DNA of 64,000 nucleotides from the NCBI RefSeq assembly GCF_934574045.1, contig NZ_CAKTMK010000004.1, one strand, 5' to 3'. Both the position numbers and the translations under genes were made by a program. The stretch comes from an uncultured Oscillibacter sp. Its GTDB lineage: Bacteria; Bacillota; Clostridia; Oscillospirales; Oscillospiraceae. The notes under the pieces were generated by a model. That model was given only the letters and a program-made list of their open reading frames with translations. It had not been told where the DNA came from and did no database searches. Position 1 is the stretch's first letter. Each line of letters starts with the position of its first letter. Positions 1,438 to 63,914 of this stretch are shown one piece after another.

Positions 1438-1770
1438 ATGGCTGTGAAACAGACCGCGGGGCGGGATGCGCTGGGCGGGTTTGCCCCGAAGTTCGCGGAG
1501 CTGAACGACGACGTGCTGTTCGGTCAGGTGTGGAGCCGGGAGGACAAGCTCTCGCTCCGGGACCGTTCGCTGGTGACGGTGGTGGCCCTGATGGCCCAGG
1601 GGCTGACGGACGAGAGCTTCCGCTATCATCTGCTCAGCGCCAAAAAGAACGGCATCACAAAAGACGAGATCGCGGAGATCGTCACCCATGCCGCGTTTTA
1701 CTGCGGCTGGCCCAAGACGTGGGCGGTGTTCCGCATGGCGAAGGAGATCTGGAAGGAGGAGGAAGCATGA
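1438..1770 (+). CDS. carboxymuconolactone decarboxylase (CMD/AhpD-like) family protein
   Basis: 110-aa ORF with a CMD-family signature (HAAFYCGWPK). RBS AAGGAGG. Its stop overlaps the next start (ATGA). Confidence 0.8.
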   Translation: MAVKQTAGRDALGGFAPKFAELNDDVLFGQVWSREDKLSLRDRSLVTVVALMAQGLTDESFRYHLLSAKKNGITKDEIAEIVTHAAFYCGWPKTWAVFRMAKEIWKEEEA

Positions 1771-2636
1771 TCCTGAAGGAGACGTATACGCTGGCCGGGG
1801 GCGCAAAGCTGCCCAAGCTGGGGCTTGGCACCTGGTTCATTGACGACGGTAAGGCGGCGGAGGGGGTCCGCGCGGCGGTGGAGCTGGGCTACCGGTTCCT
1901 CGACACCGCGCAGGCCTACGGCAACGAGCGGGGCGTGGGCGAGGGCGTGCGCACCTGCGGTCTGCCCCGGGAGGAGCTGTTCGTCGCCAGCAAGGTGGCG
2001 GCGGAGCACAAGTCCTATGACGCGGCGGCGAAGTCCATCGACGAGACGCTGGAAAAAATGGGGCTTTCCTATCTGGACCAGATGATGATTCACTCCCCCC
2101 AGCCGTGGGCGGAATTCCGGGCGGAGAAGCGGTATTTTGAGGAGAACCGGGAGGTCTGGCGGGCGCTGGAGGACGCGCAGGCGGCGGGGAAGGTCCGTGT
2201 CATCGGTGTGTCCAACTTCCTGCAGGACGATCTGGAGAGCCTGCTGCCCGCCTGCCGCGTGCGGCCCATGGTCAACCAGATCCTTCTGCACATCGGCCGT
2301 ACCGACCAGACGCTTCTGGACTTCTGCGAAGCGCAGGAGATCCGGGTGGAGGCGTATTCTCCCATCGCCCACGGCGAGGCGCTGAAGAACCCCGCCATTT
2401 CCAAAATGGCGGAGAAGTACGGCGTGACCGCTCCGCAGCTGTGCATCCGGTATGTGATCCAGCTTGGCGCGGCGGCTCTGCCCAAGACCGCCGACCCGGA
2501 CCATATGCGGGGGAACGCGGACATGGATTTCACGATTTCCGACGCGGATATGCAGACGCTTTCGAGCATGGAGCGGATGCGGGATTACGGGGAATTCAAT
2601 ATCTTCCCGGTGTTCAGCGGCAAGCCGCTGGCGTAA
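1767..2636 (+). CDS. aldo/keto reductase
   Basis: MILKETYTLAGGAKLPKLGLGTWF...DTAQAYGNE... is the classic AKR N-terminus. The start at 1767 overlaps the upstream stop. The six-frame ORF 1530..2636 is an upstream in-frame extension. Confidence 0.85.
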   Translation: MILKETYTLAGGAKLPKLGLGTWFIDDGKAAEGVRAAVELGYRFLDTAQAYGNERGVGEGVRTCGLPREELFVASKVAAEHKSYDAAAKSIDETLEKMGLSYLDQMMIHSPQPWAEFRAEKRYFEENREVWRALEDAQAAGKVRVIGVSNFLQDDLESLLPACRVRPMVNQILLHIGRTDQTLLDFCEAQEIRVEAYSPIAHGEALKNPAISKMAEKYGVTAPQLCIRYVIQLGAAALPKTADPDHMRGNADMDFTISDADMQTLSSMERMRDYGEFNIFPVFSGKPLA

Positions 2637-2722: not shown

Positions 2723-3826
2723 ATTTCGATCCACGCGCCCTGCGGGGCGCGACAGGTGTGAATGAAATTATTTCCGTCCCAGTCAAAATTTCAATCCACG
2801 CGCCCCGTGAGGGGCGCGACCCCGCCAAGTTCGAGGCCATCAAGAGCATCATTGCATTTCAATCCACGCGCCCCGCGAGGCGCGACCGCCAATAGCTGAG
2901 CGGCCTTTGTTGGTTGCGTTATTTCGATCCACGCGCCCCGCGAGGGGCGCGACTGCGCCGAGGTCGGCAGGCCCAACGATCCGGGCGCTATTTCAATCCA
3001 CGCGCCCCGCGAGGGGCGCGACGTGGGCGTGTTTGCCAAGGGATACCTCCCGGTAGAATTTCAATCCACGCGCCCCGCGAGGGGCGCGACTCCAGATTTG
3101 CCGCCCACAGATCTTTGATTACCGGATTTCAATCCACGCGCCCCGCGAGGGGCGCGACTTTTCCGTGGGCCGCGCGAAATTATAGACCAGCAATTTCAAT
3201 CCACGCACCCTGCGGGGCGCGACGCAAGCATCCTGAAAATCAAGGAGTTTCTGGGGCTATTTCAATCCACGCGCCCCGCGAGGGGCGCGACCGGATTGGA
3301 CTGAGAAACATGGAGAATCCATGGAAATTTCAATCCACGCGCCCCGTGAGGGGCGCGACCCGCCGTACCGGCCTTAATGTAGATCTCAAAGGATTTCAAT
3401 CCACGCGCCCCGTGAGGGGCGCGACTGCCACCCATAAGAACAAGTCTAAAAAGCAACGTATTTCAATCCACGCGCCCCGTGAGGGGCGCGACCGTTTCAC
3501 AATATCGTCATAATGCGGTTTTACGCATTTCAATCCACGCGCCCCGTGAGGGGCGCGACCGCTTCGCGCATCGATCTGAAGCTCGTAATTGTAATTTCAA
3601 TCCACGCGCCCCGTGAGGGGCGCGACGGCAAGACCCACAAAGCCGTGGCGTAACGACAGTATTTCAATCCACGCGCCCCGTGAGGGGCGCGACGATCTGC
3701 GCCCGGACGCCCGTGCGCGGGTCGGGATTTCAATCCACGCGCCCCGTGAGGGGCGCGACCTCGTCGCGTCTGGTGTCAATTTTGCCATGATGTATTTCAA
3801 TCCACGCGCCCCGTGAGGGGCGCGAC
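2723..3826 (-). CRISPR. CRISPR array, type I-C-like repeat, 17 repeats / 16 spacers (33-36 bp)
   Basis: Repeat on the plus strand is ATTTCAATCCACGCGCCCCGTGAGGGGCGCGAC (33 bp). Its reverse complement GTCGCGCCCCTCACGGGGCGCGTGGATTGAAAT closely resembles the canonical I-C repeat GTCGCGCCCCGCACGGGCGCGTGGATTGAAAC. Repeats start at 2723, 2788, 2856, 2921, 2990, 3058, 3126, 3193, 3259, 3327, 3393, 3460, 3527, 3594, 3661, 3727 and 3794. The low-coordinate repeats are degenerate (2723 and 3193 are 31-32 bp; 2856 lacks GG), while 3327 onward are identical. This points to a leader at the high-coordinate end and transcription on the minus strand. Confidence 0.95.
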
Positions 3827-4228
3827 AGCAAACCTGCACAAAAAAGTGGTGCGGTTTGCAAAAAACATACAAGACCGCCCGCACATACCCAGCGGACCGC
3901 TCTGCACCGGGCGGCGTGCCGAGAAGATTACCACAAACACTGTGGTCTGCGCGGTGCGAACCCGCTGGGAAAACCTGCACGCTTTCGCTTCGCACGCAGG
4001 GCAGAATGTCCCTCCGGCGAAGCGCCGCTTCCCGCCGGGATGCCTGCCGGAAAGGGGGGCTGCTTCTTAATATGAATAGTATATCAGCCCGCGGAAAATG
4101 GCAAGGGAAAATTTGGATAGGCGGCGGCCGTGCGGTGGAATTTTCCAGTCCGGTCTTGCAAATCCAACAAAAATCAGTTATGATAAAAAATATAATGTTA
4201 TGAAATTTTACCACTTAGGGGAAATGAT
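3827..4228 (-). promoter_or_regulatory. putative CRISPR leader (AT-rich toward 4080-4228)
   Basis: This region is adjacent to the youngest, non-degenerate repeat. It carries no convincing ORF and has lower GC than its surroundings. On the plus strand it also holds a candidate promoter for the C11 peptidase gene (TTGCAA 4159-4164, 17 nt, TATGAT 4182-4187). Confidence 0.5.
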
Positions 4229-5698
4229 ATGGGTAAACTATTGGGAAGCCTTGCGCTGGTCCTCGCGGCGCTGTTTGTGCTGGTGCTTCTTCTGCCGGAC
4301 GATGAGGAGCCGGCTGACCCGCCGCAGTCCTCCGCCGTGCAGACGGAGCAGCTGAGCGCGGTGTCCTTTCCGGAGGACATGGTGCGGGAGAAGCAGACCG
4401 TCCTGCGGGGCGGGGGAGAGGACACGGTCACGGTCCTGATTTACATGAACGGCTCCGATCTGGAGTCGGATGGCGCCGGAGCGACGGCGGATCTGTGCGA
4501 GATGCTGGAGGCGGACATCAGCGATCAGGTGAATGTGCTGGTGGAGACGCTGGGCACGCGGCGCTGGTCGAAAAAACTGGGCATCGCCGCGGACCGTTCG
4601 CAGCGCTACCGCGCGGCGGACGGAAAGCTCACGCTGGTGGACGATTCACTGGGCCAGCTGGACGCCACCGCGCCGGAGACGCTGACGGACTTTATCCGCT
4701 GGGGCGCGGCCAATTACCCGGCGGACCGCTACTTCCTCCTGTTCTGGGACCACGGGGCGGGGCCGGTATACGGCTTCGGCTACGATGAGCACCAGCCCGA
4801 GGACGCGGAGCTGACGGTGGACGAGATCCAGACGGCGGTAAAGGACGGCGGCGTGTACTTCGACGTGATCGGCATGGACTGCTGCATCATGTCCTCGCTG
4901 GAGCTTTGCTGCGCGCTGTACAATTACTGCGATTACATGATCCTCTCCGAGGATTTTGAGTCGCAGTATGGCTGGGAATATACCGGCTGGCTGAACGCGC
5001 TGTCAGAAAACACCTCCATTCCCACGCCGGAGCTGGGCCGCATTCTGGTGGACGACATGGTGGAGGACAACGAGCGGCGGGACGGCGGCTCGTCCACGCT
5101 GGCGCTGATCGACGAATCGTACATGAAAGTGCTGTACACGGCGTGGGTGGACTTTGCCTACGCCAACGAGGACGCGCTGCTGGGCAAGAACTACAGCATG
5201 CCCGTCCGGGGCGGACGGCGCGCCCATCCCCGGCTGCGGATGGTGCGGGACGCTTCCAGTATGGCGGACTATTACATCACGGACATCATGGCGGTGGCGC
5301 AGAACATTGCCTCGCCGGAGGCGGAGGCGCTCTCCGCCGCGGTGAGTCTTGCGGTGAACTACTTCAACTGCTCGTATGACGAGATCGGCATGACGGGCCT
5401 GTCCGTCACGCTGCCATACGGCGACGAGGACTTTTACGATGCGCTTACCCGCGTGTTCACCGGCGCGGGCCTTGACGGGGATTATGTGACGTGGCTGGGG
5501 AAATTCACCGACGGCTGCGACAGCTATTACGACTACGACCCGTGGTACGAGGAGGACTGGCAGGGCTGGGACGATTACGAGGACGATTTCGACTGGCTGG
5601 ACTGGCTGTTCTTTGACGACGAGGACTATTGGGAGGATGATGACTGGGACGACTGGGACTGCTGGGAGTACGACTGGGACGACGGCTGCTACGCCTGA
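4229..5698 (+). CDS. peptidase C11 (clostripain family, clan CD) with N-terminal signal/anchor and a Trp/Asp/Glu/Tyr-rich C-terminal tail
   Basis: The hydrophobic N-terminus MGKLLGSLALVLAALFVLVLLL is followed by the C11 hallmarks FWDHGAG (catalytic His region) and VIGMDCCIMSSLE (catalytic Cys). The final ~55 aa read DYDPWYEEDWQGWDDYEDDFDWLDWLFFDDEDYWEDDDWDDWDCWEYDWDDGCYA. Confidence 0.8.
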   Translation: MGKLLGSLALVLAALFVLVLLLPDDEEPADPPQSSAVQTEQLSAVSFPEDMVREKQTVLRGGGEDTVTVLIYMNGSDLESDGAGATADLCEMLEADISDQVNVLVETLGTRRWSKKLGIAADRSQRYRAADGKLTLVDDSLGQLDATAPETLTDFIRWGAANYPADRYFLLFWDHGAGPVYGFGYDEHQPEDAELTVDEIQTAVKDGGVYFDVIGMDCCIMSSLELCCALYNYCDYMILSEDFESQYGWEYTGWLNALSENTSIPTPELGRILVDDMVEDNERRDGGSSTLALIDESYMKVLYTAWVDFAYANEDALLGKNYSMPVRGGRRAHPRLRMVRDASSMADYYITDIMAVAQNIASPEAEALSAAVSLAVNYFNCSYDEIGMTGLSVTLPYGDEDFYDALTRVFTGAGLDGDYVTWLGKFTDGCDSYYDYDPWYEEDWQGWDDYEDDFDWLDWLFFDDEDYWEDDDWDDWDCWEYDWDDGCYA

Positions 5699-5736
5699 CG
5701 GCGGAGCAAAATTCAAGTGTGAAGCGGGAGGAAGAA

Positions 5737-7161
5737 ATGAAACTGGTGTTTAAGCTGCTGGCGGCAGCCTGTCTGCTGCTGGGACTGGCGGGCACCGTGA
5801 TCGATCTGGTCGAGGGGAACTTCGGCGAGGATACGGTCACGGTCCTGATCGTGGCCGTGCTGGCCGCGGGAGTGTTCGGCTACCTTGCGTGGCTGTGGCG
5901 GGGCAAGTCGCCGGTCAAGCGGGCGGCGGAGCAGGCCGGACAGATCGCCGAGGACCTTCGGAGCAGACGGGAAGAGGAGCGGAAGATGTCCGCCGTGCTG
6001 AAGCGGCGCATGTGGAAGTACCGCATCGCGGGCGGCGCGCTGGTGGTGCTTGCGGTCTGGATGTTCATGAACTGGGCACACAGCAATCTGCGCATCGGGC
6101 TGACCACGGTGGTCCTGATCGCGGGCCTCGCCGTGTGGGCGCTCGGCTCTCCGGGCGATTACAACGCCTCCACGGATATGATGACCATGATCGGGATGGA
6201 CCGTCCGCGGAAGCTGGAGGAATTTTACGAGGCGTTCAAATCCGTCAAGACGCCCTTCGGCTCCGGCTGGCTGGGCCGCTTCTCCACCATGAAGCAGCCT
6301 GCCCTGATCTTCGGGCCGAACTACCGGGGCGACTATCTTTACTTCTGGCTGGGCAGCAAGGGGAATATCGGCTACCTCGGCTATCTGAACTACTCCATGT
6401 TCAAGGAGATGGAGAAGGGCGACCCGAAAGGCCCCATCGGGACGGTCAGCGGCCGTTTTCTGGACGGGATCATCAAGGAGCGCATCAACGAGCCGCTCTA
6501 CCCGGCGCAGGAGCCGGGAGCGGATCTGGCCGGCCACCTGTGCTACAGCTCGGACGCGCTGATGTTCCAGCAGCAGCTCAAGGACTGCATCGACCAGTTC
6601 GCCAAGACCGGGCATGTGCCGCCCATCCGGGAGAGCCTGCCCTCTCAGGTCTATACCTTCACCGAGCAGTTCAAGCTCACAGGCCAGCGCTTTGAGGTGA
6701 TGAACGCGGAAAAGCAGCCGGTCCTGCGCGTGGAGGGCACCGTGCCGCTGATGACGCTGCGGGTGCTGGACACGAAGGACGAGGAGATCTTCCGCATGAC
6801 CAAGGAGATCGGCCACGCGCTGGCGACTTACCGCTTCTATTACAAGGGCGAGCCTTATGGCACGCTGGAAAAGCAGTTCACGCTGATCCGGGATAAGTTC
6901 GCCATGGACGTGACCGAGGGCCGTCTGGAGCTGAGGGAGTACGCCGGGACCATCGGACACGACTTCTCCGTCACGCTCAACGGAAGAATGCTGGGCGCGA
7001 TCATGGACAACATGGACATCACGATCGGAAACCTTGTGTTCGACAACTCGTTCCTGATCGTGTATGAGGAGAAGTATCTGCCGCTGCTGACGGCCATGGC
7101 CGTGATGGTGGCCAGAGAGCTGGCCCGGGACGAGGACGGCGGAGTGAGCAACCGGATATAA
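5737..7161 (+). CDS. polytopic membrane protein with C-terminal LURP-one-related/tubby-like (YxjI-like, DUF567) domain
   Basis: At least four predicted TM helices lie in the first ~150 aa. The C-terminal ~170 aa shows the alternating beta pattern FEV.N....PVLRVEG...F.I.D..G... ...FSVTLNGRMLGAIMDN of LOR/YxjI proteins. The ATG at 5737 is preferred because GGGAGGAAG sits 7 nt upstream; the track start at 5719 is a GTG. Confidence 0.6.
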   Translation: MKLVFKLLAAACLLLGLAGTVIDLVEGNFGEDTVTVLIVAVLAAGVFGYLAWLWRGKSPVKRAAEQAGQIAEDLRSRREEERKMSAVLKRRMWKYRIAGGALVVLAVWMFMNWAHSNLRIGLTTVVLIAGLAVWALGSPGDYNASTDMMTMIGMDRPRKLEEFYEAFKSVKTPFGSGWLGRFSTMKQPALIFGPNYRGDYLYFWLGSKGNIGYLGYLNYSMFKEMEKGDPKGPIGTVSGRFLDGIIKERINEPLYPAQEPGADLAGHLCYSSDALMFQQQLKDCIDQFAKTGHVPPIRESLPSQVYTFTEQFKLTGQRFEVMNAEKQPVLRVEGTVPLMTLRVLDTKDEEIFRMTKEIGHALATYRFYYKGEPYGTLEKQFTLIRDKFAMDVTEGRLELREYAGTIGHDFSVTLNGRMLGAIMDNMDITIGNLVFDNSFLIVYEEKYLPLLTAMAVMVARELARDEDGGVSNRI

Positions 7162-42186: not shown

Positions 42187-42202
42187 GCGTTGTACATCTC
42201 CT

Positions 42203-42238
42203 GCCGGGTCCCGGTTTTCCGGGACCCGGCGTTTTTTT
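42203..42238 (+). terminator. rho-independent terminator
   Basis: Stem gccgggtcccgg/ccgggacccggc with a UUUU loop, followed by GTTTTTTT. Confidence 0.85.
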
Positions 42239-42339
42239 GCCTGCGGGCGGACTTTTTCCGGCCGGACAGGGCGGTTTTGTGTCGGGTCAGGCTGTCTGCG
42301 CATATTCTGAGATTGAAAACGGAGCTTGGAGGGAGCAGT

Positions 42340-43422
42340 ATGGCAGACGCGGTGCATTTTTTCCTCGGCGCGAACAGCGGCGACGGCTTTCAGAGCCTGT
42401 TCCATGAGCTGGAGCAGGCGGGTACATACGACCTGATGATCCTCAAGGGCGGCCCCGGCTCGGGGAAGTCCACCTTCCTCCGCGCGCTGGGCGCGGCCAT
42501 GGAGGAGGCGGGCGAGCGGGTGGAATACCTGCCGTGCAGCGGCGACCCGGACTCGCTGGACGGCGTGGCGCTGCCGGGGATGGGCTGCGCCGCCGCGGAC
42601 GGCACGCCGCCTCACATTTTGGAGCCGCGGTATCCGGCGGCGGTGGACCGGATCGTGGATCTGGGGCGGTTTTACGACCTGACGGCGGCGAAGGCCGCGC
42701 GGGATGAGATCGTGGCGCTGACGGAGGAGGGCCGCGCCGCTGCCCTCCGGGCGCGGCGGTGCCTGAAAGGGGCGCGGCAGGCGGAGCTGGAGGCGCTGGA
42801 GCCGGGACGGGCAGGCTTCGACCTTGCCCGCGCCCTGCGGCGCATGGACGGCGTGATCGCCCGGGAGCTGCGCCGCCGCTCCGGCGGCGGGCCGGGGCGG
42901 ACGCAGCGGCGCTTTCTGGGCGGGATCACCTGCGCGGGGACCGTCTGGCGGTTTGACAGCGTGGACGCCCTGTGTCCCCGGGTCTACGAGCTGGCGGACC
43001 GCTGGGAGCTGGCCGGGCCGCTGCTGGAGCGGCTGCGGGCCGCGGCGGTGGAGCGGGGCTGGGACGTGACCGCCTGCCCCGCACCGGAGGAGCCGGAGCG
43101 GCTGGAGCATCTGCTGATCCCGGAGCTGGGGCTGGCGTTCGTCTCCACCCGGCCGGGGATGGAGTACGGCAAAAAGCCATTCCGCCGCATCCGGCTGGAC
43201 GCCATGACCTCCGCCCGGGAGCGGGGGCGGGAGCGCTTCCTCCGCCGGATGGCCGGGGCGCTGCGGGAGGAAGCTGCCGCCGCTCTGCGGGACGCCAAGT
43301 CCGCCCACGACCGGCTGGAGGCGGTCTATAATCCCTATGTGGACTTCGACGGCGTGCGCGCGCTGGCGGCCATCGAGACGGGACGGCTGCTGAGCTGGCA
43401 GGGGCGGACGCTTTCCCATTGA
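42340..43422 (+). CDS. uncharacterized P-loop NTPase
   Basis: MADAVHFFLGANSGDGFQSLFHEL...ILKGGPGSGKST Walker A. The remainder is Arg/Ala-rich with no recognised catalytic motif. Confidence 0.7.
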   Translation: MADAVHFFLGANSGDGFQSLFHELEQAGTYDLMILKGGPGSGKSTFLRALGAAMEEAGERVEYLPCSGDPDSLDGVALPGMGCAAADGTPPHILEPRYPAAVDRIVDLGRFYDLTAAKAARDEIVALTEEGRAAALRARRCLKGARQAELEALEPGRAGFDLARALRRMDGVIARELRRRSGGGPGRTQRRFLGGITCAGTVWRFDSVDALCPRVYELADRWELAGPLLERLRAAAVERGWDVTACPAPEEPERLEHLLIPELGLAFVSTRPGMEYGKKPFRRIRLDAMTSARERGRERFLRRMAGALREEAAAALRDAKSAHDRLEAVYNPYVDFDGVRALAAIETGRLLSWQGRTLSH

Positions 43423-63659: not shown

Positions 63660-63914
63660 AAATATCGCAAACGCGATGATGGAGAGCAGTACCCGCGTGC
63701 GGACGCGCAGAGAGAGGGCGGTCGGTGCAAGCCCCCGGGAAGTCCGCGGAGAAGTCGCTCCGGAGCCTTGCGCCGAAGGACAGTAGGCGTCAACGGGTCC
63801 TCCCGTTACAGAGGAGCGGCGCGGCTGCGCCGCATGAGCGCGGGTTTTCCCGAATGCAGGTGGTACCACGGACTTTTGTTCGCCCTGAGCCGAGACGGCT
63901 CGGGGCGTTTTTTT
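63660..63914 (+). ncRNA. T-box riboswitch leader (controls gene starting at 63950, identity unknown)
   Basis: T-box sequence AGGTGGTACCACGG at about 63858-63871. Terminator stem cgccctgagccg/cggctcggggcg plus TTTTTTT (63881-63914). Shares the block CGGG(A/T)CCTCCCGTTACAGAGGA with the thrS T-box. Confidence 0.65.

Follow-up and report, generated by a model that had tools for sequence, protein, structure and literature searches.

We identified the CRISPR (clustered regularly interspaced short palindromic repeats) array at positions 2723-3826 of a 64,000-nucleotide stretch of DNA from an uncultured Oscillibacter sp. (contig NZ_CAKTMK010000004.1; hereafter the window, 63.6% G+C) as a bona fide type I-C leader-array unit, which has no cas genes around it and has recently gained spacers at its leader end. 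The array is demonstrably being written to, within the species, by I-C adaptation machinery, and it is probably fed by I-C Cas proteins from a locus elsewhere in the same genome; we infer both the existence of this trans-acting I-C cas operon in the genome and its location. The initial annotation of the window, made from the sequence alone, had offered three explanations for a cas-less array, namely service in trans by a distant cas locus, a stranded remnant, and co-option for another function. Our results favor the first over the other two.

The two elements that make up the unit are the following.

2723-3826, minus strand: type I-C CRISPR array, called from the repeat/spacer parse, the identity of its repeat to cas-adjacent I-C repeats, and the RNA fold.
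3827-3995, minus strand: complete I-C-type leader of 169 nt, called from alignment with the leaders of cas-adjacent arrays.

The repeat/spacer parse yielded 17 direct repeats and 16 unique spacers of 33-36 nt, in agreement with the initial annotation. The array is read on the minus strand, with its trailer at 2723 and its leader-proximal repeat at 3794-3826. Fourteen repeats are 33 nt long, and the other three (2723, 2856, and 3193) are 31 nt. The commonest repeat, ATTTCAATCCACGCGCCCCGTGAGGGGCGCGAC, is present as an exact copy at 9 of the 17 positions, eight of them contiguous at 3327-3826 and one at 2788, and its reverse complement is GTCGCGCCCCTCACGGGGCGCGTGGATTGAAAT, exactly as first described. 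A block of identical leader-proximal CGTGAGG repeats had indeed been noted, with a count of ten that we revise to eight contiguous copies and nine in total; likewise, the short repeats had all been placed at the low-coordinate end, which holds for 2723 and 2856, whereas 3193 lies mid-array. Six window repeats contain CGCGAGG instead of CGTGAGG. The proposal that this form reflects decay was not borne out, as CGCGAGG is the standard repeat of other strains (the leader-proximal repeats of contig L017) and of the cas-adjacent arrays L090-L097. No further repeat copies were found on either strand elsewhere in the window.

Type I-C (Dvulg/CASS1) arrays are exemplified by those of Desulfovibrio vulgaris and Bacillus halodurans, and 5'-TTC is the type I-C protospacer-adjacent motif (PAM). 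A scan of species-representative genomes detected the identical 33-nt repeat in two Synergistaceae metagenome-assembled genomes (MAGs), an Anaerovibrio, and an Oscillospiraceae MAG. At one such locus (L002), the repeat lies directly downstream of cas3-cas5c-cas8c-cas7-cas4-cas1c-cas2, with NCBIfam scores of 441 bits for Cas1c (TIGR03640), 289 bits for Cas8c (TIGR01863), and 243 bits for Cas5c (TIGR01876). A metagenome scan detected the exact repeat in 45 more loci, many of which adjoin I-C operons in the same orientation. The cas genes of cas-adjacent loci are always on the '...GGGGCGCGAC' side of the repeat, indicating that the window leader runs from 3827 onward and that the CRISPR RNA (crRNA) strand is the minus strand. 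In minus sense, the repeat RNA was predicted to fold into an 8-bp stem with a 4-nt loop and an 11-nt 3' tail (-18 kcal/mol), the architecture expected for processing by Cas5c. The 31-nt variants retained a 7-bp stem in the predicted fold. No CRISPR repeat family was detected by Rfam at the gathering threshold, the sole match in the window being a T-box.

Comparison with canonical I-C arrays (L002, L047-L051, and L090-L099) showed that the window array shares with them its 33-nt repeat, which ends in GGATTGAAAT and combines a GC-rich 8-bp hairpin with an 11-nt tail. Spacer length (33-36 nt), the 5'-TTC PAM, polarized growth from the leader end, and a conserved leader of ~170 nt with the same leader-repeat junction are likewise common to both. 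The window array has the features of a I-C array, which are a repeat of ~32-33 nt with a GC-rich stem-loop, a 3' ...GGATTGAAA(C/T) tail and exact matches beside I-C operons, together with the 5'-TTC PAM, an I-C-homologous leader, and spacer addition at the leader end. A complete type I-C locus also has an adjacent cas operon, which the window lacks, and we class the element as a I-C array only. The repeat beside the L002 operon, the homologous leader and the TTC PAM bear out the type I-C identity first proposed for the array, and the orientation of the cas-linked repeats bears out its proposed minus-strand polarity and leader side.

The window leader aligned end to end with the ~175-nt leaders that extend from the cas2 stop codon to the first repeat in cas-adjacent arrays. 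Shared features include the junction TTTGCT|GTCGCG, the TTTTTTGCAAA block, and a distal inverted repeat, GTGCGAAG...GTTCGCAC (plus-strand coordinates 3954-3995), located where cas2 would end in canonical loci. The leader had previously been drawn at 3827-4228; the part at 3827-3995 is the conserved leader, whereas the remainder to 4228 is the promoter region of a peptidase gene. Canonical I-C loci contain cas3-cas5c-cas8c-cas7-cas4-cas1-cas2 upstream of the leader, but the window contains none of these genes, and the position of cas2 is taken by the opposite-strand peptidase gene. A cas2 relic upstream of the leader (3986-4228) was considered and rejected, the best protein alignment score being 26 versus a shuffle mean of 30.1. 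The window unit is a whole leader and array, ending where cas2 would begin.

The distal inverted repeat was also observed outside the window. In I-C loci of unrelated hosts, the form GTGCGAAG-N(25-30)-(G/C)TTCGCAC begins only a few bases from the cas2 stop codon; it was found at L004:~170-215, L003:~38-85, L026:14624-14670, L033:14600-14645, and L099:11335-11380. Both of its arms are conserved in sequence, beyond complementarity, and both are kept in the cas-less window leader. It may act as a terminator, serve as a regulator site, or be an element of the leader.

We investigated whether cas genes are present around the array. A tblastn search of the full L002 I-C Cas set against the six frames of the window detected no Cas homologs (best E = 0.046), and no cas domains were present in the Pfam/precomputed annotation, which covers most window genes and contains housekeeping and transport functions only. 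These results agree with the lack of cas genes noted initially for the 64-kb window. An I-C operon immediately outside the window, which would have made the array non-orphan, was looked for in same-species contigs, and no cas genes were found within about 10 kb beyond either window edge.

To compare strains, same-species contigs from human-gut metagenomes were retrieved by exact look-up of the flanking proteins. These contigs were 98.2-99.95% identical to the window over the sequence right of the array, and in all of them the array was located at the same junction between an aldo-keto reductase (AKR) gene and the peptidase gene, with cas genes there in none. The 402 bp from the first repeat to the peptidase start codon were 100% identical in the six strains aligned. 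The array itself ranged in size from 2 to 47 repeats. Contig L019, with flanks 99.95% identical to those of the window, contained window spacers 1-12 only, spacers 13-16 being absent. L006 was missing one internal spacer and L005 four internal spacers, and L009 had collapsed to 2 repeats. L017 contained 47 repeats and had only the trailer spacer in common with the window, and the spacers of L016 were entirely different from those of the window. Different spacers were also found in L007, L008/L010, and L086-L089, which are mostly contigs cut within the array and show the leader-proximal part only. At the opposite end of the array, one spacer recurs in other strains.

2754-2787, minus strand: oldest (trailer) spacer, common to L005, L006, L009, L017, and L019.

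The window lineage has thus added four spacers at the leader end relative to L019, and this is polarized, recent acquisition. The term "once-active" used in the initial annotation is an understatement, given four spacers gained at 99.95% flank identity. Since leader-end spacers turn over rapidly between near-identical strains, the suggestion that the array is a dead or stranded remnant is contradicted at the species level. The same turnover argues against a genome-wide absence of cas genes in the species.

Repeat variants were found to come in blocks along arrays, both in the window (2723-3826) and in L017 (12435-15542). From trailer to leader, L017 contains about 8 CGCGAGG repeats, then about 13 CGTGAGG/CGTAAGG repeats, and then about 25 CGCGAGG repeats, and one of its spacers is present twice, as the fifth and the tenth from the leader. 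Unless back-mutation or recombination between arrays is invoked, simple copying of the first repeat fails to account for these blocks.

This pattern bears on a different explanation for the spacer changes, in which the locus makes no acquisitions of its own and takes up array segments, through recombination or horizontal transfer, from strains or species that have cas genes and the same repeat. The block-wise variants suggest some recombination, and the exact repeat is found in I-C systems across several gut taxa, in some cases on mobile islands. However, close strains differ in an order that runs from the leader end, L019 containing exactly window spacers 1-12, and the six aligned strains have identical leaders. 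Further, none of the 70 spacers of the locus was present among 920 spacers of same-repeat arrays in other taxa, which argues against wholesale import of the array. We consider import very improbable, and acquisition at the locus itself the better explanation of the spacer changes.

We next examined the targets of the spacers. The 70 unique spacers pooled from this locus were searched against 50,697 phage records, with a protospacer taken as a match with <=5 mismatches. Phage protospacers were found for 20 of the 70 spacers. The trinucleotide 5'-TTC precedes 18 of these 20 protospacers in minus-strand sense, against a background in which TTC makes up 1.6% of phage trinucleotides (P = 1.4e-30). 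Fifteen of the 20 spacers with protospacers target Mushuvirus mushu (BK063464.1, MG711460.1), and these include the newest spacers of the window.

3627-3660, 3694-3726, and 3760-3793, minus strand: newest spacers 14-16, each with a 100% match to Mushuvirus mushu and a 5'-TTC.

The other Mushuvirus spacers among the 15 were the leader-proximal one of L008/L010, one of L016, and ten distinct spacers of L017. The seven positions of L017 nearest the leader are all occupied by Mushuvirus spacers, one of which is found again at position 10. L008/L010 contain another perfect Mushuvirus match with a TTC PAM in their second leader-proximal spacer, which the pooled parse had missed, and two further spacers of L086/L087 also match Mushuvirus mushu. 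All ten L017 protospacers lie in a 6-kb stretch of the phage genome (36.6 kb; P <= 5e-6), and this clustering resembles primed adaptation, for which type I systems require Cascade and Cas3 in addition to the integrase. At the other end of the array, the trailer spacer (2754-2787) matches MT835543, an unverified human faecal phage scaffold, with 3 mismatches and a TTC PAM. The spacer searches proposed initially thus returned phage matches, including those of the three newest window spacers to Mushuvirus mushu. They returned no plasmid targets for the spacers searched, and no self-targets at <=6 mismatches elsewhere in the window or in related loci.

These results also address the possibility that the array is a co-opted or non-immune element, its repeats being regulatory, serving another function, or not being CRISPR at all. 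The lack of adjacent cas genes is the only point in its favor. The spacers match phages with a subtype-specific PAM (P~1e-30), self-targets are absent from the window and from related loci, and spacer content is hypervariable from strain to strain, contrary to what a conserved regulatory RNA would show. The protospacer and PAM data effectively refute co-option, which had been raised when the array was first described and found no support here.

Mushuvirus mushu is a Mu-like temperate phage, an ancient genome of which has been attributed to the Oscillospiraceae genus ER4 via flanking sequence (PMC10805732). A 2026 preprint describes Mushuvirus as the most cosmopolitan phage genus of the human gut and reports its prophages in MAGs of ER4 and Faecalibacterium (10.64898/2026.05.08.723808); CRISPR is mentioned in neither report. 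The RefSeq exact matches to window proteins, WP_295865541, WP_295865548, WP_295865565, WP_295865583, and WP_295865615, are all named uncultured Oscillibacter sp. The spacer evidence is consistent with the published host range of Mushuvirus and adds to it. Three cas-adjacent loci of other gut organisms with the repeat of the window (L048, L058, and L074) contain 5-7 consecutive Mushuvirus mushu spacers, almost all with a TTC PAM, and in L058 and L074 these runs are at the leader end; they indicate that several lineages target Mushuvirus with closely related I-C systems.

We propose that the leader and array (2723-3995) would form a complete, functional I-C unit in the core chromosome of a human-gut Oscillibacter species. 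The array would be transcribed on the minus strand from the leader side, and Cas5c would cleave within each repeat, at the 3' base of the 8-bp hairpin, to give crRNAs with an 11-nt 5' handle, UGGAUUGAAAU. Cas1-Cas2-Cas4 encoded elsewhere would insert TTC-flanked spacers at the leader-repeat junction (3826/3827), and the array would be the species' running record of its encounters with temperate phages, above all with the Mu-like Mushuvirus mushu. Two signals near the array may delimit its transcript.

4076-4104, minus strand: promoter-like site TTGCCA-17-TACTAT, a consensus match ~250 nt upstream of the first repeat and a candidate array promoter.
2648-2692, no strand assigned: GC-rich hairpin with a 20-bp stem, found by consensus scan between the AKR stop codon and the array trailer.

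The hairpin is terminator-like on the minus strand, which makes it a candidate for the end of the pre-crRNA, and it may also end the AKR transcript.

Several results weigh against a partner cas operon elsewhere in the genome. No cas operon lies between about -9.7 kb and +73 kb (about 84 kb covered in total), and none lies beside the array in any same-species contig examined. The cas operon of the species was not found, in that searches for Cas2, Cas8c, and Cas1 homologs, which returned thousands of gut I-C proteins, gave no Oscillibacter-named match. Some strains show signs of decay, with L009 reduced to 2 repeats and leader-proximal repeats substituted in L008 and L010, and some lineages, possibly including that of the window, may have lost cas recently. 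In L008 (177-209) and L010 (155-187), the leader-proximal repeat contains CCTAGCG or CCAAGCG in place of CCACGCG, and the second repeat contains a T-to-G change; these substitutions could represent early array decay or low-coverage sequencing error.

These same results are what one would expect if the array had been stranded recently, the cas operon having been lost from this genome and the array being a frozen, non-functional record. Such a loss is made easier to envisage by a related Oscillospiraceae species, which carries a same-repeat I-C operon on an apparent mobile island that would be easily lost; together with the roughly 84 kb devoid of cas genes, the failure of the Cas2, Cas8c, and Cas1 searches to yield an operon attributable to the species, and the collapsed or mutated arrays of L009, L008, and L010, it makes stranding the most serious of the rivals, though still an unlikely one. 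The window has gained four spacers relative to L019 at 99.95% flank identity, its three newest spacers match an extant phage perfectly with correct PAMs, and its leader and eight newest repeats are free of mutations. Because of the spacer gain, the perfect new spacers, and the unmutated leader and repeats, any loss of cas would have to be extremely recent. We therefore favor supply of I-C Cas proteins in trans.

Candidates for the partner operon were sought among the loci recovered. Cas2 homologs numbered in the thousands at ~80% identity, and none ended like the Oscillospiraceae MAG fragment L003. The Cas8c candidates P0199 and P0262 came from organisms of 51-58% GC with different repeats. 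The window locus was not among the 45 exact-repeat metagenome loci, and the commonest exact-repeat operon belongs to a different, extremely prevalent Oscillospiraceae species ('Dysosmobacter sp.'/'Firmicutes bacterium'). The chromosomal I-C operon of L098/L099 has the closest leader, but its repeat is the ...GGGTTGAAAT variant, it has no spacers in common with the window locus, and it contains no Mushuvirus spacers. The flank GC of cas-adjacent loci was too heterogeneous for host assignment.

Among these loci, L090-L097 (e.g., L092, GCA_018376155.1 JAHABV010000001.1, 126196-147227) contain a I-C operon and an array with the exact repeat of the window. The operon lies in an island of 45-55% GC within a host of ~60% GC, together with MobC/NikA-like, Fic, nucleotidyltransferase toxin-type, AAA_14, and DUF6076 genes, and at the edge of the island a 545-aa large serine recombinase abuts a truncated cotJC. 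CRISPR-Cas appears here to be part of an integrative mobile element, in a gut Oscillospiraceae species of very high prevalence. The L090-L097 islands and the window are alike in the exact repeat (CGCGAGG variant) and in leader architecture, and members of the same operon family (L048, L058, and L074) are like the window in their Mushuvirus target and TTC PAM. Unlike L090-L097, which have a full cas operon in a low-GC island with a large serine recombinase, the window array lies between core genes, and the window contains no cas, recombinase, or mobilization genes.

Stand-alone arrays whose repeat matches that of a cas-linked array at another site in the genome are well documented in many bacteria and archaea. 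The window array resembles these remote arrays in being separated from cas, in its intact leader and its repeats of recognizable subtype, and in continued acquisition, which implies Cas proteins acting in trans. It differs from them in that its partner cas locus was not located, and would lie 10 kb or more away on one side or 70 kb or more on the other, and in that the remote array is the sole array seen in the same-species contigs examined. The arrangement is an already known one, a remote array sharing its repeat with a distant cas locus, and it represents no new kind of system.

The remaining features of the window provide context. Two genes flank the unit, and a second promoter-like site precedes the peptidase gene.

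1767-2636, plus strand: aldo-keto reductase gene, the trailer-side flank, assigned by PF00248 on the corresponding L005 gene.
4229-5698, plus strand: clostripain-like peptidase C11 gene, the leader-side flank (PF03415; WP_295865548.1).
4156-4184, plus strand: promoter-like site before the peptidase gene, identified by consensus match only.

The AKR and C11 peptidase genes are outside the CRISPR system. The C-terminus of the peptidase (5520-5698) contains a tail of ~60 residues, nearly all D, E, W, or Y (…DYYDYDPWYEEDWQGWDDYEDDFDWLDWLFFDDEDYWEDDDWDDWDCWEYDWDD…), and a tandem DNA repeat at 5615-5684 overlaps this tail. Annotated genes of the window include a spermidine-type ABC transporter, metA, an ECF transporter, truA, a clpB-like gene, a TRAP transporter, a MacB-type ABC transporter, genes for SLH proteins, and glyA. 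In the block at ~14.8-29 kb, der, plsY, gpsA, hprK, murB, rapZ, whiA, and dnaE were assigned by eye from translations, as were thrS and pyc; der, dnaE, and pyc were confirmed by the RefSeq names of exact sequences. In same-species contigs, left of the window lie genes for ThiF, a rotamase, a D-Glu cyclase, a CT_A_B/CT_C_D/LamB_YcsF cluster, a chemoreceptor, and TetR, HD, and MerR proteins, and right of it lie valS and genes for LprI, a Y-family polymerase, a 5-FTHF cyclo-ligase, and SMC. A T-box leader (63667-63890, plus strand; Rfam RF00230, 98.8 bits) is located upstream of a gene that same-species contigs identify as valS, just past the window end. Two plus-strand open reading frames, at 5719-7161 and 42190-43422, have coding-type GC3 (G+C content at third codon positions) and no Pfam match at E <= 1e-5, the former with a weak LOR-family flag in the precomputed annotation.

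These findings leave known CRISPR mechanisms unchanged; their value lies in showing activity clearly at the population level and in linking Mushuvirus to a host. An array that is an orphan by position is not necessarily inactive, as the strain comparison revealed spacer gain where a single genome suggests a remnant. The spacers provide independent CRISPR evidence that ties a gut Oscillibacter species to Mushuvirus mushu, and the recurrence of the same I-C repeat and phage target in several gut Oscillospiraceae points to shared or exchanged immunity modules. A more speculative extension, to which we give rather little credence at present, is that immune memory is decoupled from its machinery, with a cas-less leader-array fixed at a core site and serviced by a I-C module on a mobile island, like the serine-recombinase island with the same repeat in a sister Oscillospiraceae species (L090-L097). 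If so, the cas module could be gained and lost or pass between species, with the chromosomal array persisting and being re-used.

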